Positions 25,601 through 57,452 of a stretch of DNA of 64,000 bases are shown piece by piece; position 1 is the stretch's first letter, and each line of letters starts with the position of its first letter. The notes beneath the pieces are model-generated. The model was not told the origin of the DNA. It searched no databases and saw only the letters and a program-made list of their open reading frames with translations. A program made the position numbers and the translations under genes. This DNA is from a virus: the IMG/VR virus record IMGVR_UViG_3300025073_000006; one strand, 5' to 3'.

Positions 25601-28600
25601 GCGTCGGCCCGCTTGCTGAACCTCGGGCTCGCCGCGACCCCGCCCGTCTCCTCGAACACGCCCTTCCGCGCGAGCCCGGCCTGCTGCCTGAGCGAGGCCA
25701 CGGCGAGCGCCTGGATGTCGGCCTCGGTGAGGTCCAGGTACTTCCGCAGCGTCCCGAACGTCCGGTAGATCCATGCCCGGATCTGTGCCAGCAGGCGCCG
25801 CACCAGGGGCGTGTCGGGGTGGAACTCGACGAGGTAGGCCAGCCGCTCGCGCCGCACCGCCAGGTCCCGAGCCGGGCCAGGGTCTCCATCGACGCCAGCC
25901 TCGGCCGTGCGCGCCACCTCGGCGGCGAGGACCGTGTTCTTCTTGAGCAGCGCGTCCACCCGGTCGATCAGCGCCAGTTCGGCCGCCTTACCACCGAGCA
26001 TCGTCGCCATGCCGGCGTGAACACCGACCTCGTGGAGCAGGACGCGGGCCACCTCGCCCTCGGACATCTCGCGCACGTTGAGGTAGGTCTTGCCCTCGTG
26101 AAACACGCCCTTGACGCCGCGCATGTCCGACGACTTGAGCCCATCCGGCAGGGTGTCGAGGTCGTCGACAAGGACCACCTGCTCGGCCTCGAGCAACGCC
26201 TGGGCGTCTTGGCCGAACCGCTCGGTGATGATGGCGCGGGCCTGCTCGGCGGACTCCATGCGAGGTCCGAACTCCCAGGGCCGGTTGCGCGCGACGAAGC
26301 CGATGCCTCGACGCTGCTCGGCGAGGCCCATCCTCCCCGGCTGAACCGGCCCCTGCACGTCGGCCACACGGAACTGCACGTCGTCGAAGTGCCCTGCCAG
26401 CGACGTGATCTCGCCCGCCTCCAGCCGCCTCCACGCCGTCACCTCGTCGTAGGCCAGCATCATGCGGGCGGTGTCGTCGTCGATGATGCCGGTGCGGACC
26501 ATCTCCTCGAAGGCGTTCAGCCTCTCGGCGTAGCCCTGGGACGCCCGCATCTCCAACGACTCGGGGTCGACTTTGTCAAGCCGGGCCCGCCAGTTGTCGA
26601 TGGTCTGGCTGCGGGCCACCTTCGCCCGCTCGCCGAACTCGGCCAGCGTCTTGCGGACCGTCGCCTCGTCCTGGCCGGTGAGGTGCCGGATCAGGGTGGT
26701 GGCGTTCTCGCGCTGCGCCTTCGACATGACGTCGAGCGGGTTCATGCCCTTGCGCACGGCGTCCCGCATGACCTTGGCGGTGACGTGGTTGGCGGCGTCG
26801 AGGGGGTCGCGGATGGTGATCTTCGCCCGTCCGGCGGCGTCCTCGGCGTCGAGGAGGCGCCCGATCTGGACGGCCTCGGGAGCGAGCCCTGCCCATGCCC
26901 CCTCCAGCGCAGCCGTCATGCCCGCCCCGCGCAGATCGCGGTACAGTCCCGCGCCAACCCAGCCGCGACGGATCCCGGAGCCGAGGCCACGCAGCGCGAT
27001 GTCCTCGCCGGGGAACACGAAGTCGGCGATGATCCCGGAGGCGTTCAGGAACTTCCACTGCCAGGAGTCCTCGGCGAGGCCCATCCCGCGCCCGATGTTC
27101 TGCATCCCGAACATCCAGCCGGTTTCGCCCGTCTCGGTGCCCGCCAGAACGCGGGCGGTCCAGCCAGCCGACTCGAAGTCGCGCTGCGGCACGTAGTCGG
27201 ACGGGCCCCACCGCTGAAGCCCCCAGTCGACCCCTGCCAGGACCACCTCCTCAGCCATCGCCGAGGGCACACCGAAGGGGACGCGCATGGCCCAGCCGAA
27301 CGTCGTCTCGCCCCGGGCGCTCATGCTCACGGCCCCAAGGAACTCCTCGGCGTAGTCGAGCGCAGCGCCACCCGTCCGCTCGTAGGCCTCCCGGTTCGCG
27401 TCCACGCCGGCCTTCATCGAGTCGACGGTGATGGCCTGCTCGAGCGTGGCCTTGGGCAGGTCTGCCAGCGTGGCGCGCCGCCAGAACCGATTCCACACGG
27501 CGGCGACGGCCTCGTCGCGGTCGGCATCCGGCCCCTTCTTGCCCGCCGCCCGCAACGTCGGGTCGCTCGTGGCGTGGATGCCGTCCAGGTCGGCGATGAG
27601 TTCGAGCACGAGCGGGGAGGCGTCCTCGCCATCACGACGACCATCGGCCACGACGCGGGGCATCGTCGGCGCCTCGCCACCCACCCACACCCCCGACGGC
27701 AGGTTGCGGATCTCCAACGCGGGGAACAGCGGCGCCAGGTCCGCCGTCGTCTCGGCCGCCTCAATAATTTCCGCGTTCGTGAGCAGGTCGTTGTGCCGCG
27801 ACCCGTCGCGCTGGAGCTGTTCGTAGGCCTCCCGCGCGTCCTCGGGCAGCAACTTCGCCACGACCGGCGAGACGGGGCCCTCGACGGCGCGCACCAGGTC
27901 CCGGACGGCCTTGGGCGCCATCACGTTGGGCAGGAAACCCCATTCGGGATCCGCGTCTGCCGCGACCTCGCCCGCCACGGTGATCGTGCGCAGCTCGACA
28001 GGCTTGAGCCCCTCCTTGATCTCGGCCAGCGCCTCGTCCTTCCGGGGGTGGTTCCACGGCGCGATGGGCTCCTCGCCACGCGCCCGTCTCGCCATCCCCT
28101 CTTCTGAGTCGAGGATGCTGCTCCAGGTGTCGCGGATGACGCTCGCGATGGCCGATCCCTCGGGGATTTCTGCGCCCTCGGGCGGTTCGAGGCGATCCCA
28201 TGTGGCCCTTTTGATGGCGGCGAGTACGGCGCGGGGGCCGTCCCGGAGATTGTCCTCGTAGTCGGCCGCCCTCTCGATGCCGGCCGCCGTTGCCTTCTCC
28301 GCGGTCCACACCTCGCCTTCCGGCCGCCCGGTTTTCACCATGCCCGGCGCCATCGCACGCAGGGCCACATACCCGGCGTTGTCGCGCGGTGTCCCCTTGG
28401 CCTCGAAGGCGTCGAGCAGGAAGCCTGGCAGCGTCTCCGCGCCCTCAGCGTAGCTGATGTCGCGCTGAATCCGCTCCCACTCCTCACGCCTGACTGTCTC
28501 CTCGTCCAGGCTGCGGTCGGATTCGAGGCGCGTCTTCACCCTGGCCTCGGCGTAGTCTTCCAGCGCCGCCCTCAACTCGGGCTCGGACTTCGCGATGGGC

Positions 28601-28821
28601 GGGTCGCCGGGCGCCTCCTGCCGTTCGATGGGGCTGAAGTCGTCATCGTCGTCATCGTCGTCGTCGACGCCCACGTCAAGGGGCGCGACCGCGGCCCGAT
28701 CCATGGGTTCGTCGATCGGCTCGGCGCGCATCCGGTCGACCATCGCCTCAGCCTCGGAGCGAGGGAGCTTCGTGCGGGCCATGAGGTCGCGGATCGTGCG
28801 CTCGCGGTCGGTCGATGCCAT
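13630..28821 (-). CDS. Giant polyvalent virion (ejection) protein, 5,063 aa
   Basis: Single uninterrupted ORF. HEVGVH (26017-26034), ComF-like PRTase (VFLVDNVVSTGATF, 25204-25245), two ART-like modules (YHG 25018-25026, FHG 18619-27), duplicated module with H[VI]EEVQSD (23272-98, 20047-73), HENGH (17752-66), poly-Asp run (28639-65), C-terminal region with TM-like segment. Confidence 0.9.
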   Translation of the reverse strand: MASTDRERTIRDLMARTKLPRSEAEAMVDRMRAEPIDEPMDRAAVAPLDVGVDDDDDDDDDFSPIERQEAPGDPPIAKSEPELRAALEDYAEARVKTRLESDRSLDEETVRREEWERIQRDISYAEGAETLPGFLLDAFEAKGTPRDNAGYVALRAMAPGMVKTGRPEGEVWTAEKATAAGIERAADYEDNLRDGPRAVLAAIKRATWDRLEPPEGAEIPEGSAIASVIRDTWSSILDSEEGMARRARGEEPIAPWNHPRKDEALAEIKEGLKPVELRTITVAGEVAADADPEWGFLPNVMAPKAVRDLVRAVEGPVSPVVAKLLPEDAREAYEQLQRDGSRHNDLLTNAEIIEAAETTADLAPLFPALEIRNLPSGVWVGGEAPTMPRVVADGRRDGEDASPLVLELIADLDGIHATSDPTLRAAGKKGPDADRDEAVAAVWNRFWRRATLADLPKATLEQAITVDSMKAGVDANREAYERTGGAALDYAEEFLGAVSMSARGETTFGWAMRVPFGVPSAMAEEVVLAGVDWGLQRWGPSDYVPQRDFESAGWTARVLAGTETGETGWMFGMQNIGRGMGLAEDSWQWKFLNASGIIADFVFPGEDIALRGLGSGIRRGWVGAGLYRDLRGAGMTAALEGAWAGLAPEAVQIGRLLDAEDAAGRAKITIRDPLDAANHVTAKVMRDAVRKGMNPLDVMSKAQRENATTLIRHLTGQDEATVRKTLAEFGERAKVARSQTIDNWRARLDKVDPESLEMRASQGYAERLNAFEEMVRTGIIDDDTARMMLAYDEVTAWRRLEAGEITSLAGHFDDVQFRVADVQGPVQPGRMGLAEQRRGIGFVARNRPWEFGPRMESAEQARAIITERFGQDAQALLEAEQVVLVDDLDTLPDGLKSSDMRGVKGVFHEGKTYLNVREMSEGEVARVLLHEVGVHAGMATMLGGKAAELALIDRVDALLKKNTVLAAEVARTAEAGVDGDPGPARDLAVRRERLAYLVEFHPDTPLVRRLLAQIRAWIYRTFGTLRKYLDLTEADIQALAVASLRQQAGLARKGVFEETGGVAASPRFSKRADAAELPDDAIIGVPYNEGRTVAHAIKNGSPESIDAAADLLAPRVPKGAVLVPVPSSKGDTTVNLALAQAIAERSGATVADVLTGEARARSYDRKVSGGPDMLASEMTMRLRENATVPEGRVFLVDNVVSTGATFKAARTALGGDASIIAYAAAEDPFARARDAWTSLKTDSPWFKRWFGDSKVVDDKGQPLVVYHGTDAADIDAFDRAKSGKGPSKVGFWFTDDGEFASMFGDSTMPVYLKIANPLVLTQGKWNSLREAHGGDTAWWSTWREKQIAAGHDGLIVASSAEQLGKFTVRNPMVVAAFEPTQIKSISNRGTFDPGDPRILYSRRGPEYDRWLQRTNEAIAAMPVTDGVSGPALLKALHEWGSDVGPSVNIGTADILADIERAAGLEPGFMRDPAHDRRFWEGEIATRLMAADPELRAEWERFYAEADVEYGPALFSRRAQDTFYSAVERSVDDAFGAAKQMKGRSLVASLKKRPGVKQSELDWLGIEAWAAGRGVVTREEVRAFVKSNRVEIEEKVLGGKSPRAEAAKTAMQEVHRRKVAAEAKVRSAVEGIAIYPSQQDTRIMGVYMDGAQPMIDLNNGTRIGPSEVSDLLHRLNKYVEAYAFEEALTDYLLASSEWQDARREVELAYGAITKPQYDAHVLPGGENYREVLLRLNPGGTPPEPLTTLPEGYEPIVDRNQPESRQWGITPPGQIHARPWNGLHPTREAAIADALGRVNSDRENQWRDQQPTYQAPHFSGMSENLLAHLRVNDRLGPKGERLLHVEEVQSDWAADVRKKGVRGDEADTGLPVEVQPEDLSVAETEYQWIVSHPDGREVKVGKGTVGRDEAPSYGARVLNRERLDMQREIAVKNSERVPPTPFPQDWHELTMKVALRMAVEDGYDGVTWTTGKTQQDRYDLAKRVREVAYDPNGETLLAYDHDGKTVINKTVGIDEIDEYIGEKPGAKLREEVKRREYDRNSLFEVVEHPDDPDAFAIINTNGDYTLDMNHPDFAPERFVDRAGAEERINYDLVQEDESQGYPSISGLDLKIGGKWAEHLYDGMIPGFLKRYAAKWDAKPGMTDIQVPIAKDTSFAHDRSEKVHHLPVTDAMRESIAEGQPQFSRRNFDALAFGTEPPREGLYDEVVTAGHRAAWDGVGMDELPESTYTGATALDLARFRGRYRPEVAQADTGAMAPREQAATTTPLPDLALPGEWADMEVTEIDVRGGDTVSERTRARFSRRAEDDYAGEHRPTGPEEGAPLHDLTGAGVVYPDDVYGPNGVRYYGTGDEVLDRQAFAIARAMKGRPDAKVTIYRAVPKDNAERVGDIEHRMARILKRGASDPGEYDRLGAELERLRQAPPNEARRINPGDWVTITKAYAKDHGESALRGDYTILSARVKAADIFTNGDSIHEWGYWPDGQRPQFSRRVDPAPIWYSGLRRAVEGLKQDRFTPDQLRGALGKWQVKERVPEVKDGKPVMKGNEPVMRDGKMLATYPLNQGAEAEAHAARVGGVASFAGPAGVKVDEVKWTRLNEFLEGKKTVTKAEVLAYLDKNKVELGEVVLGTPSSALMDRYNVDPSDMEDAIEKARDVERKVARDARRAASRGRDAVAALRRGWQDIDNAKDYLDESVSIENNYGDSPTWEPVRSLLEDLIQRADDQHDAAVDALEDAEPDATDTSDVPDARLTDDEIAQLEAAVESAALNWTGLDWDEYVDVRTRDGEHERIDVSELLQDGTFAPSEGPAQYASLVLSGDSENYRELLFKMPRGLLLRMTQANMDLRIARLRRQVEEGVLIANQTGVWPQGHRDAQLRLAKAQDDRISPPPYRSSHFPASGEGENLLAHVRFNDRVGPNGEKILHIEEVQSDLHQAGREKGYKTQELPGEMEQALRARETVALAERTAAHQAQLDAIEAYESAANAVTQYETTTPRPRNMPSDAPPEQVEQWTRDTQAWADAAGDIFDRKREAISALRRAFDQRFELAGGAPNVPSGLYLGGRLMTPDDLRAMADRQLERSEAARDEWARNEFDAFNANRVPDAPFAKTWHEMVLKRMLRFAAENDYDAVSWTTGVQQVKRYEDQVRKVVDEIRWRKEPMSPYLWRDARETRAMDEYGEPWSVLTPKEQAAITASMGPGAESRIVIEAIKDGRVVHNDAKSATEMKGVIGGDMVKAIMASPEQSGSLKGPDLTVGGQGMIGFYDKMLPAWMNKYAAKWGARVEVGDIGLTRDMPAENWHVFRQSTGEDVAQFGTEQDAASYVSRAAQDGDPDLAGLDYAQTTRIADPVHMIRLTPEMRRSVLEQGQAQFSRRAPSTPEFQEWSRGLPVINFDDVEAIPEGGAIVRAFHGSRFDNIDEFRQQDTAYGYFFSPDARTADFYRGGGDGVGRRYEVYLRMENPADFNDPAVFEAVAKEAIWDDDSGRVVLGRYGEMRNMENSDFREWLAAEATKLYGSDAAVKAWVDDLAEQAGEPLVGNPDALRDAIDYDAIDEYDIENTLLSESPALKAALDEAMPVRSREIDAARAAHNEGSQNWYMNYQDDFVKAAEHMGYDSVVMTDPSPEGAPISFVVFKPEQIKDIANERPTSDPRITHSRRAPGAPLTGQFFGAAGTGTPGNARWLLEFFRGADWRTLLHENGHLLQEFIGEDGRALLAVYYDSLPQHMVDDIHQRANAGESPAQIATALGLETHVEDMNGTRIEPDVLTVENVLRATPGEPVLTRLGMDQAADAFRRYVELRMQPTGALGRAVAEVGERLRETWAQFRGQQVELPAEVRASWDRLLRPEGVAQRRLVVIGEAGRPDFPIVRVDPGPEYAVEEKIRKAGQAREAKRTAVRDEELLQELGLEVGDQVPLDELVSKVAAYMVVEDARKWMIGVDMVTLTPRTVIPKARLGRVRKAALSRLAGALGDTPANLVATAREGDASVRLTPAQQSGLRIYARQLASEPIATIYGRSLVPERLLDPAANLDTITFAEVNRLQELALDVEAGAATRRTRRTASVSPSAAAAFVDVLGRAIPSKLKNTLTKAFIVERPMAGYPDPHVQDIVERHSRELGGAQDWVRNGVRAQRAMRPWYSRMGFKDVGSIMESLRGVANELTPPVARNGHDVGIVDILFAQHQALSGDAPNVDAILNPVRLVALQDALDSWRHGLSPEEEAALRILDSYRGRTAVNLAPAELLDVEDAVSRIAVGLGDRVRVVELRANEIAIILTGSSEANILATLQWYDRVALYKAFYEGRWLPEHGPQVPLPNRPPTLFDIMAGMGRATGLADKSLWRRIKDAVQGRRTFKMDPNVALAEAIVRMRAHDILGRMADELAEYGLLGPERGRDVDVGLPLRDRFYDHVVAALNARVAWNDSTALDQYTGSVVRRGPPAPHQDLPTVDRRRLAGPPGAFHGHPDMAALLYADDLMDRWGWKRGEGLWTAMDLDGRRIMVPQMFQEQIKLALDEAATVGTARRSGQVVGTIAPLREPAPGAAVGSRAALHAENALLVVFDAVPKLFSRIKVGMVVGILVPNVFSYIGNILDGQWQWFQRDGLRAVFGAQVNPARQKLVKDVFIGLWGEQRAIEGRGVLVTKDGRVYSAEQLRQMARSYGLNSSFVHAESARALTDDIRREHRTWIENVLLPFEWWQEQLVSAYTAIDNYGRLHVFFDHLAKGADPAEAAAAARMALYDYGNMTDFEQRVMRQVSLFYAYERANQTLFWWTLLNHPSRVAGQVRLIRDMQQLYLEDEYRIVRPENYERQLMVAYRRFIEDGVRVDVRGVDVEADPLRRLGLAFVTRQQPAVDGFTLWGEIISWALSAFDDPKAAARVANRLPPWWQAPIVSATRVDPSTSYNIDSGNFNTVPPWFIALDRALTGGLIVDDFLGVRPVDEPDPAKRYDVDIPYRWVVGQGNELRWWGIQNLGHALPGMGRGISTMQALDRSFDHGPVERLVRGTLATREALGLTPGKTHPYIRETLEGPRVGRTPGDELVGFFIAKPILVDTAQELRRRDTQRAAGKAGADKRELKRADNP
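17925..18640 (-). other. ART-like module 2 inside the giant protein
   Basis: VRAFHGSRFDNIDEF....GYFFSPD...ADFY...YEVYLRMENP...GYDSVVM....SFVVFKPEQIKDIAN. Confidence 0.45.
24660..25035 (-). other. ART-like module 1 (ART-PolyVal-like pattern) inside the giant protein
   Basis: VVYHGT..ADIDAFD....GFWFTDD...ASMFG..VYLKIANP...GHDGLIV....VVAAFEPTQIKSISN. Same pattern as module 2. Confidence 0.45.
25145..25470 (-). other. ComF/type-I phosphoribosyltransferase-like domain inside the giant protein
   Basis: VLVPVPSSKG...LALAQAIAERSG......R.......M.........EGRVFLVDNVVSTGATFKAARTAL. The PRPP-loop-like acidic-hydrophobic stretch followed by STGAT is typical of type I PRTases. Confidence 0.6.
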
Positions 28822-28833
28822 GTGCTGCCTCTG

Positions 28834-31662
28834 TTACGGCGCGGCCAGTGCGTCAGCTTCGGCGTACTTGGCGCGCATCTGCTCGATGGTAATCTGCTTC
28901 GCGTTGTACGCCTGCATCGCGTCCTTGCGGATCTGGGCCGCCCTGGCGATGTCGACCGGATCGGCTGGCAGGTACGTAGTTGTGCGCGGCTTGCGTGGGC
29001 CGGCGGCCTGGGCCTTGGGCCGCCGGGGTGCGTCGGCCGCACGGTCCATCGGCTCGACGGGCGCGGGCGCCGTCGGGGCCGCCCGCGGGGACAACTCAGC
29101 GGCCTCGGCTTCCACCTCCTCGATGGCCTCGGCGAGGGTCTGGAGCGACGTGAGCACCCGGTCGCGTTGCAACTCCAGGTCGTCGATGTCGGTCTGCCGG
29201 CTGGCCTTGGCGAGTTTGGCGTCGATGGCCGCCAGAGTCTTCGTGTGCTCAGCCTGCAACGACAGGATGTCCGGCATGTCGCCGTAGATGTCCGTCAGCG
29301 CCTTCGCCTTCGCGGACGCCGCGCGGTCGGCGTCAGTGGGCGGGGGTTCGGGCACAGGGGCCGGCGTGGGCATCGTCGCCGTCTGCCCCGACGGCACACC
29401 CTCAGTGGCCCGCCCCACGTCCGGGGTCCACGCTCGCGCTGCCTCGCCCTGCCGGCGGCGGTCGGTGGGGCTGACGACGTCCCATCCGGCAACCCGCGGG
29501 CCCACGCGGACATGGGGCAGCGGGCCCGCGGACCCCAACGGGGCACCGGAATTGGGCGGGCCCTCAAACGGCGCCAACCGCCCCCGTGCCGCCTCGTCTT
29601 TGAGGCGCTGAGCCTCGATGGCGTCCCTGCGGGTGTCGATGTCCTCGCGCGAGACGCTCTCCCGCTCGTCCGCGCCGAGGGCCCAACCCTGGCGAGAGAG
29701 GTTGAGCGTGTCGTTGCGAAGCCCCACCCTGTCACCGGCGTTGAAGTGCCGCCGCTCGATCTCGACGAGAGTGCGACCGAAGGAGCCGACGAGCTCGGGC
29801 GGCATCCCCTGCGTCATGCTGGTGATGTCGTAGATCCGCTGCACCGCCTCGTCGGTGTCGCCCGCCGCGTGGGCATCGGCCAGGGCGTTGGCGGCCACCT
29901 CCGAGAAGTAGACGTCGTCGCGGGCCCGGTCGTTGGCCGTCGCCGCCGCCGTGCCGAGATCGGCCACCACCTCGCCCATGACGTCCGCCCGGGGGCGCTG
30001 CGCTGGGTGCTGCCCGATCATCTTGACGATCGCGGCGGCCGCATCGCCCTTCGCGAGGGTCGCCTGGTCGCTGGTGGGGGTGCCCTCGGCGTCGAGGGCC
30101 ACGAAGTACACCGAGCCGTCCGCCCTCTGGAGGTAGCGGTAGGTCCCGTTGTCGTCGTCGACGACGCGGTCGGCCTGTCCCGTCGCCATCGTCAGCGCGT
30201 CGATCGCCTTCGCGAGGTTGTCGAACAGCGCCGGGGCGTCGGCGTACAGGCCGGGGTCCATGTCGAGCAGCGACGCGGTCGACTGCTTGAGCGCCAGGAG
30301 CCGCTGCCCGCCCTCGTCGACAGTGGCCGGGTCGGCGAGCAGGCCACGAATCGCGGCAAGTTCGTCGTACAGCCAGTCGTGGACGCCGGTGAGCCCGAGC
30401 ACCTTGTCCTCGTCACCTGCCCGGTTCGCAGCAGTGTAGGGGATGGGCAGGCCAGCCGGGGCGCCGGGCTCAAGTCGGTAGTCCTGGGACGCCTCCGCCG
30501 CTGCCTTCTCGGGGTTGCCGCGGTTGCGCAGGATGTAGGTGTCGGCCTCGCCCCGCACGACGGGATCGGTGTCGGCGCGCATGTCCAGGCCCGCCTGCAA
30601 GCGCCCCAGCCGTCCCAGCGAACCCCGGGCGGGCGTCTGGAACGGCGTCTCCAGCAGGTAGTTGAAGCCGTAGCCCGCGAACAGGTCGGCACCACCCTGC
30701 GCCCGGATCCGGGCCCGCTCGGCCACGAGGTCGTCGCGTCGCTTGCGGAGGTCGGCGAGTTCGGCCTCGCTCTGTTCGGCCCCCGGCTTGACGATGGTGT
30801 CGTACCAGTCCTGCCAGCTCCCCGCGCCGGACACGCCCACGCCCGGTCCGCCGCCACTCGTCCCGACGCTACCGCCGCTCCTGGCGCTTGAGGAACGCTC
30901 GCCCAGGCCGCCAACGCCGTGGCTCATCACCCGCTGCCGCCTGGCGGCGGCTGCCTCTGGCGACAACGGGCCGAACTGCGCCTCGGCCCACTCCACCGGG
31001 GTCCTCCCGCCGAAGTGCTCCTCGCCCCACCTGGTCGCTTCCGCGCCGGCCGCGCTCTCCGGCGACAGACTCGCCGCCGCGTTGAGGTAGAGCCCCACCT
31101 TGTAGCGCAGGGCCCTGTCCTGCACCGACCCTGGCTGGATGCCCTCCTCGGCCCGGATGCGCTCGTAGGTCTGCTTGGCCTGCTCGCGCGCCATCGCCGG
31201 GTCGTCCATCGACGCGACGTTCTTGACCATCTCGCCCAGGTGCGCCTCGGACTCGCTGGAGAGGTTGGCGATCTCGCGCTGCGCCGTGCGTTCCTCGGCG
31301 GCGATCTCCTCAAGGTCCACCTCGGCCCCGATCTTGGCGGCCTCGACGGTCGCTTGACCTCTCGCAGTCGCGGCGGCGACCATGCCCGCGCTGTTGGTGG
31401 CGACCTTGACGATGTCGCCGAACTTCGCGGACGCCGAGAGTCGCAAGTTGTCGCGACTCTTGATGATCTGTGCGATCTGCTTGTCGATGTCCCGGATCTC
31501 GTCGCTGAGCGCCTTGGGGTCCATCTGGGCGAGCCGCGCTTCCATCGTGGCGTTGAACATGCGTTGGCGCTCGCCGATGAACGCCGCCCAATAGGAGACG
31601 ATGGCGGGCGTGCCCATGTCGAAGTGGGGGTCGTAGGTCGGCCGGATGAGCGGGGTCGCCAT
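28834..31662 (-). CDS. Large internal virion / ejection-associated protein (942 aa)
   Basis: Track ORF immediately upstream of the giant gene. Long helical, charged regions. Function assigned by position only. Confidence 0.75.
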   Translation of the reverse strand: MATPLIRPTYDPHFDMGTPAIVSYWAAFIGERQRMFNATMEARLAQMDPKALSDEIRDIDKQIAQIIKSRDNLRLSASAKFGDIVKVATNSAGMVAAATARGQATVEAAKIGAEVDLEEIAAEERTAQREIANLSSESEAHLGEMVKNVASMDDPAMAREQAKQTYERIRAEEGIQPGSVQDRALRYKVGLYLNAAASLSPESAAGAEATRWGEEHFGGRTPVEWAEAQFGPLSPEAAAARRQRVMSHGVGGLGERSSSARSGGSVGTSGGGPGVGVSGAGSWQDWYDTIVKPGAEQSEAELADLRKRRDDLVAERARIRAQGGADLFAGYGFNYLLETPFQTPARGSLGRLGRLQAGLDMRADTDPVVRGEADTYILRNRGNPEKAAAEASQDYRLEPGAPAGLPIPYTAANRAGDEDKVLGLTGVHDWLYDELAAIRGLLADPATVDEGGQRLLALKQSTASLLDMDPGLYADAPALFDNLAKAIDALTMATGQADRVVDDDNGTYRYLQRADGSVYFVALDAEGTPTSDQATLAKGDAAAAIVKMIGQHPAQRPRADVMGEVVADLGTAAATANDRARDDVYFSEVAANALADAHAAGDTDEAVQRIYDITSMTQGMPPELVGSFGRTLVEIERRHFNAGDRVGLRNDTLNLSRQGWALGADERESVSREDIDTRRDAIEAQRLKDEAARGRLAPFEGPPNSGAPLGSAGPLPHVRVGPRVAGWDVVSPTDRRRQGEAARAWTPDVGRATEGVPSGQTATMPTPAPVPEPPPTDADRAASAKAKALTDIYGDMPDILSLQAEHTKTLAAIDAKLAKASRQTDIDDLELQRDRVLTSLQTLAEAIEEVEAEAAELSPRAAPTAPAPVEPMDRAADAPRRPKAQAAGPRKPRTTTYLPADPVDIARAAQIRKDAMQAYNAKQITIEQMRAKYAEADALAAP

Positions 31663-31665
31663 GAC

Positions 31666-32460
31666 CTACTCCGACGCGGGCGTGGTGCGGTACAGGCTGT
31701 TCGTCGCGGAGGTGTCCCGCCCGGTGAACGCCCTCATGTAGAAGATCTGCATCGTGGGGTCGGTGTCGCCCCAGTCCACCTTTTTGACGTGCTGCGCGGC
31801 GGCGACCTGGCCCGCGAGCCCGGCGACCTGGCCGATCCCCTGCGCGATAGCCTGCCTGCGCTCCTTGACGCGCTCCGACTTGTAGGCGGTGGCGCTGTCG
31901 GCGCGGTCGAGCTGGCGGCCCATCTCCTGGAGGCGGGCCATGGTGTTGGCCTGGTTGACGGCCAGCGCCGCCTCCTGCGCGGGGCGCGCGGCCCCCTCCT
32001 CCATCGTCCGGATGTCGGCGGCCGAGGTCGTGCCGCCCGTCGCGGCGATGCGTGCGCCGGCCGCCTGCTGGGCCTCGCGCTGGATGCCGCCGGCGCGAGC
32101 GAGCCCCTGCCTGTGCTGCTCCTCGATGATCTTGGCCTGCGGGGTGGCAGCGAGTTGGCCCTTGGCGTGGGCGGCGTTCAGCTTTTCCAGCTCGGCGTTG
32201 TTGCGGCGGTCCTGGTCGGTGTTCCACGCTGCCGCGGCGATCTGCGCGGTGGTCGCCGCGGCCGAGACGCCGAGGCCGATCCCGAGCTGCTTCGCGTACT
32301 GCTGGCGAAGCGCGACGTCGGGGCTGACGGCAGCGCGGTCCATCGGGGACAGCTTCTGCGGCGTGACCCCCGCCCCTGGCGCGATCGTGAACGACTGCGG
32401 CGCGTTGGGGTCCTCGTACATGATGGAGTAGGGATTCTGGGAGGGGCTGCTTGTTGCCAT
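31666..32460 (-). CDS. Internal virion protein (264 aa), Ala/Gln-rich
   Basis: Track ORF. Position and composition only. Confidence 0.7.
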   Translation of the reverse strand: MATSSPSQNPYSIMYEDPNAPQSFTIAPGAGVTPQKLSPMDRAAVSPDVALRQQYAKQLGIGLGVSAAATTAQIAAAAWNTDQDRRNNAELEKLNAAHAKGQLAATPQAKIIEEQHRQGLARAGGIQREAQQAAGARIAATGGTTSAADIRTMEEGAARPAQEAALAVNQANTMARLQEMGRQLDRADSATAYKSERVKERRQAIAQGIGQVAGLAGQVAAAQHVKKVDWGDTDPTMQIFYMRAFTGRDTSATNSLYRTTPASE

Positions 32461-32509
32461 GGTGTCATCCTACTTCCGTCAGGGGTGCGCCACCCGATAC
32501 CGCCAGGTG

Positions 32510-32911: not shown

Positions 32912-32920
32912 CGCGACCTC

Positions 32921-33754: not shown

Positions 33755-33771
33755 GATGCACCTCGGTCGCG

Positions 33772-40099: not shown

Positions 40100-40171
40100 T
40101 GGGGTCGACTCCGAGATGAAGGGGATGGAGAGGGTTCGCGCCGACCGTCACGCGACGGTCGGCGCTGGAGA

Positions 40172-41248
40172 TCAGAAGGACTCGCCGTCGTAGAACAGGG
40201 CGGTCGAGTCGAACCGCTCGCCCATCCACTGCCCGGCGCAGTCGACGTAGCCGACGTCCACGCGACGGTCGCCCGAGTGCTGGTTGCCCTGCATCGGGAC
40301 CACGCCGAACATGCCGTCGATCTCGTCGTTCTTGAGGAAGATCGGGTAGATGCTGCCCAAGTCGAGCGAGAGCACCGACCACGGGGCCGCCGTCGTGACG
40401 GTCCCGGCCGTCGGCATGTCCGAGGTCGGGTAGCAGTCCTGCCCGTCGATCTTGAAGTCGGGACCGATGATGTCGGCCGACTGCGTGCCGGTGTACTGGC
40501 GGTAGGGGTGCATGACGCGGGCGAAGTGCGTCGCGCCGGACTGCGAGGCCAGGTAGATGACCTTCGACTTGTCGATCAGCCTCTCGCGCTGGAGGTTGCG
40601 GACGGTGATGAAGCCGAGCCGCCCGTTGGAGCCCACGGCCCCGCCCAGGTCGTAGCTGTGGTTGTTCATCCCGCTGGCGGTGGCGTAGGTCGACTTCGAC
40701 AGCCCGCCGACCGTGTTGCCCTGCGACCCGTGCGCGTCCTCTTCGATGTAGCCGGCGGATCCGACGGTCGCGTAGTCCGAACCGTTCAGGGTGGCCCATC
40801 CGCCCGTCGTGAACGCGGCGACGCCACCCGTGAGGGAGTGCGTGTGCCAGTAGCGCATCACGGCCGCGGTGACGTTCTTCGCCCTGCGCGCGATGGCCGC
40901 CTTGGCCTCGTTGCTGCCGTTGAACACGGCGCGCTCGACGATGCTGGCGAGGAACGGCGCGGTGACGAAGCCCGGCGAGAAAATCATCGACTGGAGGATG
41001 CCGACGACCGTGAGGTCGATCGACTCGTAGCCGGTCGGGATGCCGGTGAGGCTGGAGTGCTCGCTCACCTCGACGTCGGCCTTCCACTTCTGGCCGCCGT
41101 TCTTGGTGAATCCGCCCTTGCCGTAGATGCGGTGGTAGGCGTCGAGCAGCGGGAGCTGCCGACGGAGCATGTCCTGCGTCTCGGCGACCGTGATCATCAC
41201 GAGCGCGGCGAGCTCGTCGGTTTCGAAGGTGACGGAACGGGATCCCAT
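40172..41248 (-). CDS. Major capsid protein (358 aa)
   Basis: Directly follows the scaffold-like gene. Size and composition are typical of HK97-fold capsid proteins. Assignment is positional, not motif-based. Confidence 0.7.
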   Translation of the reverse strand: MGSRSVTFETDELAALVMITVAETQDMLRRQLPLLDAYHRIYGKGGFTKNGGQKWKADVEVSEHSSLTGIPTGYESIDLTVVGILQSMIFSPGFVTAPFLASIVERAVFNGSNEAKAAIARRAKNVTAAVMRYWHTHSLTGGVAAFTTGGWATLNGSDYATVGSAGYIEEDAHGSQGNTVGGLSKSTYATASGMNNHSYDLGGAVGSNGRLGFITVRNLQRERLIDKSKVIYLASQSGATHFARVMHPYRQYTGTQSADIIGPDFKIDGQDCYPTSDMPTAGTVTTAAPWSVLSLDLGSIYPIFLKNDEIDGMFGVVPMQGNQHSGDRRVDVGYVDCAGQWMGERFDSTALFYDGESF

Positions 41249-41277
41249 GGTTCACTCTCTGAAGGGGAGGGGGTTGC

Positions 41278-42216
41278 TCACCCGCGCAGACTGTTTGCGT
41301 AGGCGATGGCTTGTTTCGGGTTGCGCGCCACCCAGTCGGTCATGGCGTCTGGGTTGGAGCGGATGTGTGCGGGCGGGCCTTCGATGGTCGAGCCGCCCCC
41401 GCCACCGCTGGCACGGGCGACCTGGCGCTGGGAACGCGCGGCGGCGTCGGCGCGGCGCGCCTTGCGCTGCGTCTCGGCCGCCATCATGCGGCGCAGTTTG
41501 GCCTCGCGGACGGCCTCGTCGAGGCGCCCCGCGGGGTCTTCGCCCGCCTTCTCCCAGCCGACGATGACGGCGTTCACGTCGTCCTTGAAGGTGGGATCCG
41601 CGAAGTCGTCGGCGTACTTCTCGACGACGGCCTGGCGGCGGGCCTCGCGCTGGGCCTTGAGGGCGTGCTCCTGGATGGGCTCAGCGAACTCGCCCAGGGC
41701 CTCGGCCATCTCCTTCTTGGCGATGCTGCGCATACCCTCGGGCGTGGTCGGGTCGAGCTTGTCGACGTCGACCTTCTTGCCCTCCGCGATCAGCTTGCGG
41801 ATCTTCGGGTTGCCGAACATCTCGGCGAACGCGGCACGGGACCGCCCGAGCTCGCGCTGCTGCTCCTTGACGCTGAGCTCGACCGCCTCGGCCTGGCGAA
41901 GGGTCGCCTGGGCCACCTCGTCGGCGTGGGCCGCGCGCTTGTCCGCCACGCGCTTGAGGGCGCGGATGATGTGCCGCGCCTCGGGGGGCATGTCGGCGAT
42001 GGTGCGCTCGTTGAGGCTGGTGAGGTCGACGATGTCGTCGTCGCCGGGCTCGCCGAGCATCTCCAGCACCTTGGCGAGTGCGTCGGCTTCGGCCTCGGCG
42101 GCGGCTGCGGGGTCCGGTTCGTCGGCGGCGGCTTCTTCCGGGGTTTCCAGCTCGCCGCCTGCGTCCAGGTTCTCGTTGTCCAGTTCTTCGACTTCTTCGA
42201 TGGGTGTCGTCGGCAT
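41278..42216 (-). CDS. Scaffolding protein (312 aa)
   Basis: ATG 42216 inside track ORF 41278..42564. Acidic N-terminus, then long charged helical sequence (AEAVELSVKEQQRELGRSRAAFAE..). Located between the portal and capsid genes. Confidence 0.65.
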   Translation of the reverse strand: MPTTPIEEVEELDNENLDAGGELETPEEAAADEPDPAAAAEAEADALAKVLEMLGEPGDDDIVDLTSLNERTIADMPPEARHIIRALKRVADKRAAHADEVAQATLRQAEAVELSVKEQQRELGRSRAAFAEMFGNPKIRKLIAEGKKVDVDKLDPTTPEGMRSIAKKEMAEALGEFAEPIQEHALKAQREARRQAVVEKYADDFADPTFKDDVNAVIVGWEKAGEDPAGRLDEAVREAKLRRMMAAETQRKARRADAAARSQRQVARASGGGGGSTIEGPPAHIRSNPDAMTDWVARNPKQAIAYANSLRG

Positions 42217-42233
42217 CTCGTGGTCCTCGCGTG

Positions 42234-42848
42234 TCACATCGCCGCCCGGGACATCGCGTCCTCGCCGCCGGCTTCTTCCGGGGCGGGGGCAGGGCGAGCC
42301 GGGGAACCCTCCGGTCCGGCTCCACCACCGATGTCGGCCGAGACGGCCTCGATGAACTTCTTGTCGTTGGCCATGACCCGGAGCTTGGCGGCGACCGCCT
42401 GGTAGTCGTCCGGGGTCTTCATGGTGGTCGGGTCGAACCCGTGCTTCGGCGCGTACTTGCCTCCCTCGACCTGCATCGCCATGATGAACAGGGTCGCCAG
42501 GGGCAGCCAGATTGCCGGCGGCAGCGCGGCCGACCACGTCTTCTCGCCCTTGGTGGGCTCCCACACGATCGGGCGGATGGCGTCATAGCCAGCGGGCAGG
42601 CTGTCGCTGATCTTGCCGAGCACCCCGTTGACCTCCTCCAGCACGCGCTCCACGTCGCGGATGGGGACGGCCTGGGTGGGCACGGGGCTTTGGTCCATCA
42701 GCGAACCCTGGACGGCCTCCAGGCGCTGCTGCTCGCTGGCCGCGACATCCGCCGGTCCAGGCGGCGGCGCGGTCCCTGCTGGCGCGGGCGGCGCTCCGGG
42801 CGCGGGCGGAACGGGAACGGTTGCGGGGGGTGGTGCGAGCTGGGCCAT
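42234..42848 (-). CDS. Head-module protein (204 aa), Pro-rich N-terminus
   Basis: Track ORF with AGGAGG upstream. The C-terminus ends with DAMSRAAM. Confidence 0.6.
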   Translation of the reverse strand: MAQLAPPPATVPVPPAPGAPPAPAGTAPPPGPADVAASEQQRLEAVQGSLMDQSPVPTQAVPIRDVERVLEEVNGVLGKISDSLPAGYDAIRPIVWEPTKGEKTWSAALPPAIWLPLATLFIMAMQVEGGKYAPKHGFDPTTMKTPDDYQAVAAKLRVMANDKKFIEAVSADIGGGAGPEGSPARPAPAPEEAGGEDAMSRAAM

Positions 42849-42905
42849 AGGGCCTCCTACTCGCGTTGTAGCACCCTCAAGCGAAACCGACGTGATACCG
42901 AAAGG

Positions 42906-43604
42906 TTACACCCCAACCAGGGGCTTGGCGGCGACGTTGACCTGCCGACCCGCCATCTCTCCCGTGAACGCACGATCGCCCGCCTTGGCGATGGCCTCGT
43001 GGTATGTGCGGCGGACCTCGGGCTCGGGATGATTGGCGTAGAAGTCCATGTCTTCGCGGTATGCTGCGTAGTCCGCGGCCTCGGCTTCGCGCCGCTTCGC
43101 CATCCTGGCGTCGACGATCTCGTCGAGCTTGCCGCCCGCCTCCTCGACGTGGTTCGCCCGCATCCAGGCTTGACGTTCGGCGCGGTTCGTGAACGTGCGG
43201 CCCGCGCCCTCGTCGTAGGTGCCGTAGGGGTACTTGTCGTTGTCCATGAGCGTGGTGAACAGCGGGCGCATGGTCGCGCCGCAGTCGGGGCAGGGGTTGC
43301 CGGTGTTCGAGCCACCCGCCCGGAAGTCGATGTCGAGATGGTGTTCCTTGCCGCAGGCGTCGCAGTAGAACGGCCGGGCGACGAGCCCACGCCACCGCTT
43401 GCCGTTGCGGACGCGGATCACGGTGCCGCCCGGCGCCTCACGCAGCTCGTCGGCGTCGTCGGCGTCGCCGTCGGCCCGTGCCAGAAGGTCGTACCGCGCG
43501 GGCTCGCCGCAGGTGGGGCAGTCGCGCTCGGTGTCGCGCTCGGCGATGGACGACGAGAAGCGGAACTGGTGGTTGTTGGCGCACTGCGCCACGTAGATCG
43601 GCAT
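42906..43604 (-). CDS. Double zinc-ribbon protein (232 aa)
   Basis: ATG 43604 (the track ORF begins at TTG 43610). C..NH....CPTCG and CDACG....CPDCG motifs resemble FmdB-type zinc ribbons. Confidence 0.6.
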   Translation of the reverse strand: MPIYVAQCANNHQFRFSSSIAERDTERDCPTCGEPARYDLLARADGDADDADELREAPGGTVIRVRNGKRWRGLVARPFYCDACGKEHHLDIDFRAGGSNTGNPCPDCGATMRPLFTTLMDNDKYPYGTYDEGAGRTFTNRAERQAWMRANHVEEAGGKLDEIVDARMAKRREAEAADYAAYREDMDFYANHPEPEVRRTYHEAIAKAGDRAFTGEMAGRQVNVAAKPLVGV

Positions 43605-43606
43605 GG

Positions 43607-43792
43607 TCAACCCTGGGTCTGTGGGCCGATGCGCCCGGCGCGGAACATGGAGAGGGCCTCGGTGACCGCCTGTTCGCGCGTCTTGCCCTCGGCCACGAGC
43701 TTGTCGATCTTCGCGCCCACCGCGTCCCGTTCCGCCTGGGTGCGCGGGGTTGCGTGAGGAGCCGCCGCCCTGTCGATGGGGGAACCGCTCAT
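43607..43792 (-). CDS. Small head-module protein (61 aa)
   Basis: ATG 43792 overlaps the upstream stop (ATGA) and is in frame with track ORF 43607..43957. Confidence 0.5.
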   Translation of the reverse strand: MSGSPIDRAAAPHATPRTQAERDAVGAKIDKLVAEGKTREQAVTEALSMFRAGRIGPQTQG

Positions 43793-44067
43793 TTGCGCGG
43801 CTTCGCCGTGGCGACGAAGCGGATGGCGCCGAGGGGGATAGATGCCGGGCGCTTGTAGGATGACGTCCGGATCTTGCCCCGGTAGGCGTAGTAGCCGTCG
43901 GGATCCTTGCCGAGGCTCACGCCGGACACGCCCGCCTTCTGCTTGCGGGCCTGCCACTGCGACTGCGCCGAGGGCGGAATGCCGCGCTGCTTGGACGGCG
44001 TGTGCGGCTTGGCGGCGGCGCGCTTGCCGCGCGTCCCCGTGGCCCGAAGCATGGGGTCGGAAGGCAT
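43789..44067 (-). CDS. Small basic protein (92 aa)
   Basis: ATG 44067 in frame with track ORF 43789..44424. Lys/Arg-rich. Starts MPSDPMLRATGTRGKR. Confidence 0.5.
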   Translation of the reverse strand: MPSDPMLRATGTRGKRAAAKPHTPSKQRGIPPSAQSQWQARKQKAGVSGVSLGKDPDGYYAYRGKIRTSSYKRPASIPLGAIRFVATAKPRK

Positions 44068-44069
44068 GG

Positions 44070-44258
44070 TCAGTTCCCCCGTCGGCGGTTCTGGAGCCGG
44101 CGCATCGCGGGCGACCGCTCCTCGTCGGTCTTTGCCATGCGCTTGGGGTGGCGCTTGGCGCGCTTCGGCATGGCCGCTCGGGACATCGGGTCGTCGTCGG
44201 TGCTGCCGGATGCGACGAGTTCGTCGGCGTCGAAGGTGATGGTACGGGTCGTCATCAC
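44070..44258 (-). CDS. Small basic protein (62 aa)
   Basis: Track ORF whose start overlaps the portal stop. Contains DPMSRAAMPKRAKRHPKR. Confidence 0.5.
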   Translation of the reverse strand: MMTTRTITFDADELVASGSTDDDPMSRAAMPKRAKRHPKRMAKTDEERSPAMRRLQNRRRGN

Positions 44259-46516
44259 GCCTCCGGGGTCGGTGCGGGTTGCGCGGCGCCCTGGGTGAGC
44301 ACCTGCTGGATGCTGGCGATGAGGGCGCGCACGGCGTCGGGTTGCTGCTCGGGGGGCAGGGTGCGGATGCGTGCGACCTCGGCCTTGACCGTCGGGTCCT
44401 CGCCGAATTGCGCCTCGATCTCACCCAGGGCGGCCTCGGCCATGACCCCTGGGTCCTCGGCCGGCGCCTGGGTGGGCTGCTCGACCGGACCTGGCGCGGC
44501 GGGCGGCGGGGCGTCGGTCGGTGCGGGTTCGGCCGCTCGGTCGATGGGCGAGGGCTTCGTGGTCTTCGCGGCCTTGGCGGCGTCGAGTGCCGCCCACAGG
44601 CGGTCCGGGCTCAGGTTCGGGGGCAAGGTGAAGTTGTCGTAGATCGCCTGCATGGCCTCGCGGGCGATGATGGCCTCCGGTGAGCCCGGATCCTTGGTCG
44701 CCATCACCCACAGCTCCATGTACTTCGGCAGCACCTCGGACAGGTTGGCCCGGATCTCGAGCCGTGCGCCCGGTGTCCGGCCAACATCCGAGAAGCTGAA
44801 CTTGAACCAGGAGTCGAGATCCTTGACGGTGACCTCGACCTTGTTGCCTGTGGTGTCGAACAAGGTGATGCTCTGGCTCGCAGCCTTGCCCCGGGGCGGC
44901 TTGGACCCCTTCGGCATCCGCGCCATCATCTCGTCGGTCGGCGCGGCCCGCATCATCGGGTCCTCGTCCTCGTCCTTGTCGCGCTCCCGGGTGTAGTCCG
45001 GCTGGATGTCGACCGAGTCCTCGTCGCCGTCGTCTTCACCCTCGGCCCACTCGCCGTCGGGGGTGGGCCGCATCGCCGCCACGAGGGTCTGGACGTAGGC
45101 CTCCGCGAGCTGCTCGAGCGTCCGCTCCCAGGCCGAGGCGTAGCGACCGAACTCGGAGTCGGTGAAGTCGCGCTGGTACTGGATTTCCTCGGCGGTGACG
45201 TTCTGCCTCACGCCAAACGCCGAGGGCGACAGCGCCACCTCGGCGACGAAGTCACGCTCGGCGATGTCGGCGAACCGCTCGATGTCCACCGACGCCTTCG
45301 CGGGCTGGACCTGAGCGATGTACCGGCGGGCGTCCGAGCCGATCTCCTTCCAGGTCTTCTGGTCGGGGAACAGCACCTCCATGTCCTTGGCGCTGACCAC
45401 CTTCTTCTTCTCGTCGCTGCTCATGCCCGGCGCGCCCACCCAGATCACCTTGTCGCGGGATGCCTTGTCAGCCATCTGCGAGCGGTAGGCGTTGAGCTCG
45501 CGCTGCTGGGGCATCCACTGCGCGGCGGGGGCGAGGCCTTGGAGCGGGTACTCGGCGCGCGTCTCGAAGAAGTGGACGAAGATGTGCGGGGCCGGCTCGC
45601 CGTCGGCGTCGAGGCCGGGCATCGGGCCGACGTAGAGGGGTTCGTCCTTGCCTGCCAACTCGGCAGGCTGGTCGAGCAGGTAGACCTCGTAGGAGCCGCG
45701 GTAGACCTCGCCGTCGTCGTCCACGTAGTCCTCGGCGAAGTTGCAGAGCTCCATCACCCGCACCCACTTCGCCTCGGTCCCGACGAGCGAGGTTGACGTG
45801 GAGTCCTGAGCGCCGGGGCTCTGCGCCGTGCCGCGTGATGACCCGCGCGAGTCGAGGAAGTCGTTGCGGTACTGGCCTGCCAGCTTGTCCTTGGGCAGGT
45901 TGTACTCGGCCGCCACCTGCTCCAGGGGTCGCCATCCGACGTGGCCCCGAAACCGCTGGTGGCGCACGTCGTAGACCTCGCGGTCGATGACGGCCTCCCA
46001 GATCGGGCACACGTAGAGCTCGACCCGGTCGGGCGGCGGCTTGGCGCAGTCCTCGTGGTTGACGGCGAACCGGAAGCACACGCCCGGGTAGAGCAGGGCC
46101 TGGCGCACCGCCGAGTCCCACCGCTGGCGCTGCTCGGCGGCGAACATCCAGTCGTTGACGACCAGGCCGGCCTTGTCGGGGTCGCCCGTCGTGGTTGCTG
46201 ACGGGGAGACGTCGACGCGCATGGAGCGCGGGAACAGGTTGGCGTAGTAGGCCGACGCCGCGGGCTTGATCTTGTTCGTCTCGTACCGGTTGGAAATCGA
46301 CTTGATCTCCTCGCTCACCTCGCCCTTCGCCTCGCCGATCACCCACTGCCACCACCTCGTCTCGTAGACGGCGGCCACTCCTGCGAGCTCGGCCTGCCGC
46401 TCTTTCCAGAAGGCGTCGTGCTCAGCCAGGGCAGCCATGGCGCGCTGACGGCGCTGGCGAGGGGTCGTCGGCTCCGGCTTGGGGTCGTCGTTGATCGTGA
46501 TGTCGTCGGTGCTCAC
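44255..46516 (-). CDS. Portal protein (753 aa)
   Basis: Immediately downstream of the large terminase with a GTGA overlap. Size typical of portals. Acidic C-terminal region. Confidence 0.8.
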   Translation of the reverse strand: MSTDDITINDDPKPEPTTPRQRRQRAMAALAEHDAFWKERQAELAGVAAVYETRWWQWVIGEAKGEVSEEIKSISNRYETNKIKPAASAYYANLFPRSMRVDVSPSATTTGDPDKAGLVVNDWMFAAEQRQRWDSAVRQALLYPGVCFRFAVNHEDCAKPPPDRVELYVCPIWEAVIDREVYDVRHQRFRGHVGWRPLEQVAAEYNLPKDKLAGQYRNDFLDSRGSSRGTAQSPGAQDSTSTSLVGTEAKWVRVMELCNFAEDYVDDDGEVYRGSYEVYLLDQPAELAGKDEPLYVGPMPGLDADGEPAPHIFVHFFETRAEYPLQGLAPAAQWMPQQRELNAYRSQMADKASRDKVIWVGAPGMSSDEKKKVVSAKDMEVLFPDQKTWKEIGSDARRYIAQVQPAKASVDIERFADIAERDFVAEVALSPSAFGVRQNVTAEEIQYQRDFTDSEFGRYASAWERTLEQLAEAYVQTLVAAMRPTPDGEWAEGEDDGDEDSVDIQPDYTRERDKDEDEDPMMRAAPTDEMMARMPKGSKPPRGKAASQSITLFDTTGNKVEVTVKDLDSWFKFSFSDVGRTPGARLEIRANLSEVLPKYMELWVMATKDPGSPEAIIAREAMQAIYDNFTLPPNLSPDRLWAALDAAKAAKTTKPSPIDRAAEPAPTDAPPPAAPGPVEQPTQAPAEDPGVMAEAALGEIEAQFGEDPTVKAEVARIRTLPPEQQPDAVRALIASIQQVLTQGAAQPAPTPEA

Positions 46517-57451: not shown

Positions 57452-57452
57452 G

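Follow-up and report, generated by a model that had tools for sequence, protein, structure and literature searches.

Encapsulin cargo-loading peptides bind the luminal face of an HK97-fold shell protein, in systems with no portal, scaffold or DNA. In phage T4 the internal proteins IPI-III and Alt carry a capsid targeting sequence (CTS; reviews PMC3012670 and PMC9026906). In phage P22 the incorporation of portal and ejection proteins depends on the scaffold, and DarB of phage P1 has an N-terminal packaging signal (PMC8402733 and PMC9024508). Prohead proteases recognise short motifs, which are L/I-x-E in T4 and S/A/G-x-E in phiKZ/SPN3US (PMC5694885 and PMC10052503), and for polyvalent proteins packaging in the capsid followed by injection has been predicted (Iyer et al. 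2017, PMC5512222). The choice of minor and internal proteins for encapsidation, including very large injected effectors, is poorly understood outside T4 and P1. This report deals with a heptapeptide, [D/E]-P-M-x-R-A-A in its simplest form and referred to below as the tag, which recurs in the virion module of an uncultivated phage (virus record IMGVR_UViG_3300025073_000006 of IMG/VR). The stretch that was analysed, hereafter the window, has 64,000 nt and a G+C content of about 70%.

The heptapeptide and its counterparts in near relatives

The preliminary description, made from the letters of the window, had listed eight copies. A six-frame scan with its regular expression, [DE][PA][MT].RA[AT], returned the same eight at the same positions, all of them in frame on the minus strand within long open reading frames (ORFs) rich in G+C at third codon positions (GC3), and zero further matches in any of the six frames of the window. 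A slightly wider expression adds three copies, which brings the total to 11 in nine proteins:

44942-44962, minus strand, DPMMRAA, portal residues 519-525, in an acidic loop
44531-44551, minus strand, SPIDRAA, portal residues 656-662, in the C-terminal tail (new, wider pattern)
44172-44192, minus strand, DPMSRAA, 62-aa basic protein, residues 23-29
44038-44058, minus strand, DPMLRAT, 92-aa basic protein, residues 4-10
43763-43783, minus strand, SPIDRAA, 61-aa protein, residues 4-10, in an ORF that starts MSGSPIDRAA (new, wider pattern)
42240-42260, minus strand, DAMSRAA-M-stop, extreme C-terminus of the 204-aa protein
32558-32578, minus strand, DPMLRAA, 133-aa glycine-zipper protein, residues 112-118
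32329-32349, minus strand, SPMDRAA, 264-aa protein, residues 38-44 (new, wider pattern)
29035-29055, minus strand, EPMDRAA, 942-aa protein, residues 870-876
28690-28710, minus strand, EPMDRAA, giant protein, residues 38-44, with a nine-Asp run downstream
27544-27564, minus strand, DPTLRAA, giant protein, residues 420-426, the weakest copy

The number expected by chance was estimated over the 20 virion-module proteins (11,276 residues) from their composition and from 300 shuffles per protein. For the original expression eight copies were observed against 0.05 (composition) and 0.06 (shuffle mean, with a maximum of 2), and for the wider one 11 against about 0.1. The codons differ between copies, as had been claimed: Arg is CGG, CGA, AGG, CGC or CGT, and the Pro and Ala codons are mixed, which argues for selection on the peptide and not on the DNA. 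About four to five of the seven positions are constrained, and the nine carriers have no other mutual similarity. A short motif that recurs in unrelated proteins and lies in disordered segments has the attributes of a short linear motif (SLiM). The basic runs which were said to follow several copies are found behind those of the small basic proteins and the 942-aa protein only, and they are not part of the motif.

The carriers are the portal (two copies), three small proteins of which two are strongly basic, the 204-aa protein, the 133-, 264- and 942-aa proteins, which are presumed internal or ejection proteins, and the giant protein (two copies). There is no copy in the terminase, the capsid protein, the scaffold, the tail-type proteins or the early genes of the window. 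The tag is N-terminal (within about 45 residues) in four carriers and C-terminal or nearly so in three, and it lies in internal loops in the portal and at the second site of the giant protein. Two observations concern the giant protein. The nine-Asp run (28639-28665) lies eight residues 3' of its first tag and is kept in one near relative, L007 (DDDDDDDDDE), and reduced in another, L006. Deep in the chain, GALGRAV (residues 3794-3800, 17440-17460) fits a loose R-type pattern and resembles GALERAV, a tag of the relative L148, and it may be due to chance.

In 50,697 deposited phage genomes tblastn with the portal, the capsid protein and two remote homologues of the portal gave no match, and single-sequence scans of IMG/VR gave no relative. 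The protein database contains 20 portal homologues. Through portal homologues and two other queries a near clade of syntenic contigs was assembled, which represents five related metagenomic phages: L001, L002, L003 and L008 were reached through a portal homologue and L007 through a homologue of the 942-aa protein, L004 and L006 are two contigs of one sample, and L005 and L148 belong to one lineage. Conservation in relatives was thereby confirmed, since every copy has a counterpart at the same site of the orthologues, with a sequence that varies by genome:

Portal 519-525: DPLTRAA (L148/L005), DDILHEAA (L001, L004), HDVLTEAA (L002)
Portal 656-662: EPMERAA (L148), DVMAEAA (L001), DPLAEAA (L002), DVMQEAA (L004)
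62-aa protein: DLLAEAA (L002, 57 aa), DIMMEAA (L004, fused protein of 107 aa), SALERAS (L148, 94 aa)
92-aa protein: the L002 orthologue (88 aa) begins MSDPLTSAAGKRKRRRR
61-aa protein, N-terminal: V-A-S-D-DILVEAA (L001, 67 aa), V-K-G-K-DIMHEAA (L004, 68 aa)
204-aa protein, ends of the near-clade orthologues: DIMTEAAM-stop, DILAEAAG-stop, DIMAEAAM-stop, GALERAV-stop
133-aa protein: EPMLRAA (L007), EDIMVQAA (L006)
264-aa protein: SPMDRAS, N-terminal (L007), ETLFDAA (L006)
942-aa protein: SPLDRAA (L007, 1087 aa), DVMYEAA (L006, 915 aa)
Giant protein 38-44: DPMSRAS (L007), DVLLEAA (L006)
Giant protein 420-426: GDVLSEAV (L006)

The alignment of DPTLRAA with DVLSEAV of the E-type orthologue indicates that this weakest copy is real. 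The near clade falls into two types that are not mixed within any genome. In R-type phages (the window, L148/L005 and L007) the tag reads [DES]-P-[MIL]-x-R-A-[AST], and in E-type phages (L001, L002 and L004/L006) it reads D-[IVD]-[MLI]-x-[EQ]-A-A. Matches to both patterns were counted per genome, with shuffled controls giving means of 0.02-0.2:

Window: 11 R, 0 E; the 11 are ten tags and GALGRAV, DPTLRAA being outside the R-pattern expression used for these counts
L148: 5 R, 0 E; tags DPLTRAA and EPMERAA (portal), SALERAS, GALERAV-stop
L007: 4 R, 0 E; tags EPMLRAA, SPMDRAS, SPLDRAA, DPMSRAS
L001: 0 R, 4 E
L002: 0 R, 4 E
L004 and L006: 0 R, 9 E; tags DDILHEAA, DVMQEAA, DIMMEAA, DIMHEAA, DIMAEAAM-stop, DIMVQAA, DVMYEAA, DVLLEAA, DVLSEAV

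The capsid protein and the scaffold have no copy in any of the six near-clade phages. Between lineages the identity is about 56-63% in the large terminase and about 44-54% in the portal, and only the pair L001-L004 is closer (73-75%). Nor are the two R-type phages that were compared more similar to one another than to the E-type phages, so shared ancestry alone is insufficient to explain the distribution of both types. A simultaneous charge reversal at no fewer than eight unlinked sites, in lineages that do not group by type, is what would be expected if a single co-changing partner read all of them. On this comparative evidence the heptapeptide is a real, conserved and co-evolving short linear motif of the portal and of presumed capsid-internal proteins.

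The virion module, its carrier proteins and distant relatives

The virion module is of the tailed-phage type and lies on the minus strand. Its genes, in transcription order, are:

46513-48132, minus strand, large terminase (TerL)
44255-46516, minus strand, portal, 753 aa
44070-44258, minus strand, 62-aa basic protein
43789-44067, minus strand, 92-aa basic protein
43607-43792, minus strand, 61-aa protein
42906-43610, minus strand, double Zn-ribbon protein, 234 aa
42234-42848, minus strand, 204-aa helical protein
41278-42216, minus strand, scaffold-like protein, acidic and with a coiled coil
40172-41248, minus strand, capsid protein, 358 aa
down to about 34166, minus strand, tail-type proteins
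32921-33754, minus strand, 277-aa protein
32510-32911, minus strand, glycine-zipper protein, 133 aa
31666-32460, minus strand, 264-aa protein
28834-31662, minus strand, 942-aa protein
13630-28821, minus strand, giant polyvalent protein, 5063 aa, the presumed main cargo, with two ART-PolyVal domains

The giant protein belongs to the polyvalent proteins on account of its two ART-PolyVal domains (PF18760, E=1.5e-22 and 1.5e-13), and its orthologue in L006 has ART-PolyVal (PF18760) together with PBECR5 (PF18814). The 133-aa protein matches glycine-zipper segments of tape-measure and internal virion proteins in PHROGs. Apart from these matches, Pfam and PHROGs identify almost nothing in the module. 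The capsid protein has no sequence match in Pfam, PHROGs or the PDB; the only PDB match of its family profile (E=0.04) was discarded as spurious.

In the AlphaFold2 (AF2) model of the portal, both tags fall in segments with a predicted local distance difference test (pLDDT) score below 50: the copy at 519-525 within residues 486-544, and that at 656-662 within the disordered segment 654-687. The 204-aa protein is modelled as a confident helical domain (about residues 50-175), followed by a disordered Pro/Gly-rich linker of 25-30 residues, with the tag last. The small and internal carriers have a similar layout of domain, flexible linker and tag, and the remaining copies lie in termini rich in Pro, Gly, Ala and Asp. 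The gene of the 204-aa protein occupies what we take to be the usual position of the protease in a head module. Nevertheless, the possibility that this protein is a hidden prohead protease was rejected, because its domain has no fold match in the PDB at E<=0.001 and an alignment of 57 sequences of the family contains no conserved catalytic residues and no conserved His/Ser/Cys/Asp set.

The small basic proteins show how the tag behaves when a gene is split. The 62- and 92-aa proteins (43789-44258 in the window) correspond to a single protein of 103-107 aa in L001 (12202-12513) and L004 (12229-12552). In L004 there is one chain (107 aa) with one tag, whereas in the window and in L002 (57 and 88 aa) there are two chains with one tag each, which fits a label that is needed once per polypeptide. 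In L148 an N-terminus of the 62-aa type is joined to a C-terminus of the 61-aa type in a 94-aa protein.

The N-terminus of the 62-aa protein has a second peculiarity. Its residues 5-16, RTITFDADELVA (44211-44246), copy residues 4-15 of the capsid protein, RSVTFETDELAA (41204-41239), and this pairing is kept and co-varies in L001, L002, L004 and L148; in L002 both proteins have T-M-x-S-DELA at the N-terminus. The 62-aa protein is therefore built of a mimic of the capsid N-terminal arm, the tag and a poly-basic tail, in this order. In distant relatives the mimic was not seen. We considered a likeness between the capsid N-terminus and the tag but did not retain it; the capsid N-terminal peptide is treated as a separate shared element.

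The preliminary description had also likened the core of the motif to F-S-R-R linkers in the giant protein. Between its domains this protein has eight [FYH]-S-[RK]-R linkers, against nine in the L006 orthologue:

25609-25620, 24613-24624, 24271-24282 and 22273-22284, linkers 1-4 of the giant protein of the window
21922-21933, 21364-21375, 18730-18741 and 17881-17892, linkers 5-8 of the same protein

The linkers are constant across tag types. Kinship between linker and tag was rejected, because the linkers of the E-type L006 stay [FY]SRR while all its tags have switched to E. They constitute a feature of their own and may mark domain boundaries or sites of processing. Behind the last one there is an HExxH motif, HENGH (17752-17766).

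Scans based on the portal added about 140 loci, which come from IMG/VR and from metagenomes of marine, freshwater and groundwater origin; their G+C content is 37-69%, and several contigs have about 70-75 kb. The whole group comprises about 150 metagenomic contigs. Two of the protein relatives carry names of metagenome-assembled genomes, 'Patescibacteria group bacterium' and 'uncultured proteobacterium', and the first label, at 70% G+C, suggests an error of binning. Most distant loci contain a member of the 204-aa family as well as the scaffold, the capsid protein and the Zn-ribbon protein. The 204-aa orthologues of 105 loci end almost without exception in an acidic-amphipathic peptide, such as FDEDEQALAANMA, EGDDAMLASEM, TAEDKALMENM or YAEDDPLAAAM. 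An exhaustive search of the family agrees with this: most of its 75 cluster representatives end in such a peptide, with 0-2 residues behind the motif across most of them. More than 100 distant relatives have this version of the tag.

A position-specific scoring matrix (PSSM) was built from these C-terminal peptides of the distant clade. At a cut-off of 12 bits there are 89 matches in same-strand ORFs and one in opposite-strand ORFs, an imperfect control in that opposite-strand ORFs are mostly non-coding. The matches include the C-terminal tail of the portal, the N-termini of several proteins whose genes lie upstream of the terminase gene and, in distant relatives, the extreme C-terminus of giant proteins. 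The near-clade heptapeptide is best described from these profiles as a lineage variant of an older tag, with weaker support in the distant phages. A second peptide is conserved near the N-terminus of the 204-aa family (SLMDQSPVP, about residues 47-57, 42680-42710 in the window); it reads D-[LV]-M-A-Q-A-A-P-x-P-[ED]-K-P-F-S in marine relatives (L048, L050, L061, L083 and others). It resembles the E-type tag and may be an internal copy of it or part of the fold.

Other genes of the window encode a C-5 cytosine DNA methylase (2723-4219, plus strand), an RNase T-type exonuclease (53511-54524, minus strand), a primase/helicase-like DUF927 protein (55412-57571, minus strand), an SNF2/ResIII helicase (58237-59817, minus strand) and a PDDEXK-like DUF3799 protein (61801-62709, plus strand). 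No tRNA genes were found in the window.

Docking, cleavage and the putative receptor

The preliminary description had proposed a short linear motif of packaged proteins, serving either maturation cleavage or targeting to the capsid or portal. The first part is strongly supported by the positional conservation and by the genome-wide change from R to E, and of both functions the sequence evidence favours targeting or docking. On balance, the heptapeptide is probably a docking or address tag of the procapsid. It could form an amphipathic turn or short helix capped by Asp, Glu or Ser, with small or hydrophobic residues at positions 2, 3, 6 and 7 fitting a groove and the charged position 5 engaged in a salt bridge. 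All copies would dock in one phage-encoded receptor site of the assembling procapsid, and the docked minor components would be co-assembled inside the shell. Between lineages, the polarity of the salt bridge at position 5 would have been flipped (R to E/Q) together with the receptor.

The strongest competitor is cleavage. The motif would then be the site of a maturation protease, either an unrecognisable phage enzyme or one of the host, which trims the portal, the small and the internal proteins, and the change from R to E would reflect an altered specificity pocket. T4 and phages of the phiKZ/SPN3US type provide precedents for a short cleavage motif shared by many head proteins, and a co-evolving protease explains the concerted change as well as a receptor does. 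The A-A followed by G, M or P behind a hydrophobic position loosely recalls sites of the assemblin type, and the giant protein contains one HExxH motif. Nevertheless, this explanation seems rather unlikely. It had been reported that the module lacks a canonical prohead protease, and the Pfam and PHROGs scans agree with this, without a match to the S78, S77, U35 or ClpP-like families in the virion module or to any protease family among the other window ORFs that were scanned. Moreover, the capsid protein and the scaffold, which are the usual substrates, do not have the motif, and the residue behind it is not conserved. In the 204-aa family the copy is at the extreme C-terminus, so that a cut would remove almost nothing (1-4 residues), and in the portal, judging from its model, a cut at residue 519 would split the core fold.

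Binding to a host factor (a chaperone, a protease adaptor or an envelope component in ejection), with R and E types that track the hosts, is improbable. In favour of such binding, no receptor could be located among the phage proteins, and the tag types differ between phages of different environments. However, the carriers are exactly the portal and presumed capsid-internal proteins, with no tail or early proteins, which points to a role in head assembly, and the tag family is kept across phages of 37-69% G+C whose hosts are presumably very different. It is more doubtful still that position 5 is a modification site, for instance for ADP-ribosylation by the ART domains of the giant protein, which would mark the internal proteins. 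Both Arg and Glu are ADP-ribose acceptors, and there are two ART-PolyVal domains in the giant protein; but position 5 is Q, S or D in some copies (DIMVQAA, DPLTSAA, ETLFDAA) and A, N or S in distant relatives, and the hydrophobic and small positions that flank it are no less conserved, a pattern more in keeping with a binding surface than with an acceptor site. Finally, chance, composition in a 70% G+C genome or a DNA-level repeat is virtually untenable, since, even with Ala, Arg, Pro and Asp common in the module proteins, 8-11 copies stand against 0.05-0.1 expected and a shuffle maximum of 2, the five other frames have no match, the codons differ, the copies keep their sites in orthologues otherwise 33-65% identical, and the per-genome pattern counts refute it as well.

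If the heptapeptide is a docking tag, its receptor should change with it. Covariation was analysed between the complete R-type modules (the window and L148) and three E-type modules, over 3,361 aligned columns, and two weak leads were obtained:

41542-41619, minus strand, candidate receptor segment, scaffold residues 200-225 (weak lead)
42354-42413, minus strand, alternative candidate receptor, helix of the 204-aa protein, residues 146-165 (weak lead)

Besides position 5 of the tag, full charge reversals are found only at scaffold D207, which becomes R, K and K in the three E-type phages, and E222, which becomes K in all three. Between them N215 becomes R, K and R. Both R-type phages have D, N and E at 207, 215 and 222, the three positions lie in the best-conserved segment of the scaffold, and the direction of their changes is complementary to that at position 5 of the tag. 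Our best guess, mainly by analogy with P22 and T4, would be that the scaffolding protein is the receptor, with the segment around residues 200-225. Other candidates could be the helical domain of the 204-aa protein, the Zn-ribbon protein and the inner face of the capsid protein. In the 204-aa protein, positions 150 and 161 are Q and N in the window and Q and G in L148, and K or R in E-type phages and in most of 74 representatives; seven representatives with acidic tags also lack both basic residues. A comparison of the window with residues that are conserved as basic in more than 90 relatives was set aside as uninformative, since the large phylogenetic distance between the near clade and the marine majority produces far too many differences.

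Several points weigh against docking, or against the receptors proposed for it. When the same five phages are partitioned in other ways as a control, 2 and 6 columns show full charge reversal, against 2 in the real partition with the tag itself excluded, and the scaffold covariation is for this reason not significant alone. Nor is the association of 204-aa positions 150 and 161 with tag type significant over the 74 representatives. AF2 does not dock the tail of the 204-aa protein on its own domain. Among the 105 distant loci, a test of own-genome against other-genome peptides is only weakly positive (mean z 0.27; z>2 in 8 loci). Cleavage after docking, as in T4, would look identical in sequence, and scans with hidden Markov models (HMMs) could miss a host protease or a highly divergent one. 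Docking as opposed to cleavage, the receptor's identity and the stage of assembly at which the tag acts are our inferences.

Comparison with described systems

The T4 CTS is, like the tag with its nine carriers, a short peptide common to otherwise unrelated proteins of the head interior, and in both cases one carrier is an ADP-ribosyltransferase, which in T4 is injected into the host and here corresponds to the giant ART-PolyVal protein. The CTS directs proteins to the scaffolding core, and docking on the scaffold is our best guess for the tag. On the other hand, the CTS occurs only at the N-terminus, where the prohead protease gp21 cleaves it off, whereas the tag may be N-terminal, C-terminal or in internal loops, no protease is detectable and the portal is tagged as well; there is no sequence similarity.

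Encapsulin peptides are similar in being short, terminal, placed on a flexible linker and variable between lineages, and in bringing diverse cargo into an HK97-type shell. They differ in that the tag belongs to a tailed phage, whose module includes a terminase, a portal and a scaffold-like protein of its own, and in that the consensus is unrelated. In P22 and P1, too, the portal and minor internal proteins join the procapsid while it is being assembled, by way of the scaffold or of a hierarchy among head proteins, and the P22 module resembles the present one in that its scaffold has a gene of its own and a recognisable protease is lacking. We know of no common linear motif described for the portal and ejection proteins of P22, and the signal of P1 DarB is an N-terminal region of about 30 residues in one protein instead of a heptapeptide in nine. 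The motifs of prohead proteases also recur in many head proteins of one phage; they have three residues, occur in capsid protein and scaffold and are accompanied by an identifiable protease gene, unlike the present case.

The polyvalent proteins are represented here by the giant carrier itself, with its two ART-PolyVal domains, an orthologue with PBECR5 and a gene beside the virion genes. For these proteins, the relevant portions of PMC5512222 give fusions to MuF or portal and processing by peptidases as the route of head entry, and a shared targeting heptapeptide is not described in them.

It is a serious possibility, although somewhat short of probable, that this entire and as yet uncultivated group of phages of about 70-75 kb loads its portal, small DNA-associated proteins, ejection proteins and giant effector proteins into the procapsid by means of one lineage-coded, portable tag and a single receptor site. 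If so, both partners would co-evolve like lock and key, giving the R-type, the E-type and the acidic marine type, and the system would be a phage counterpart of encapsulin cargo loading that can be read from sequence. The presence of the tag on the portal and on every presumed internal protein would then be a sequence-level rule for carried or injected proteins, which could predict the injected proteome of uncharacterised phages and could be used to load foreign cargo into capsids. The natural charge swap between lineages offers a ready-made experiment towards the receptor, in a large environmental group with no relative among the deposited phage genomes searched. The closest known systems are the T4 CTS and the encapsulin peptides, from which the tag differs in having no recognisable protease beside it, in its variable position and in being carried by the portal.

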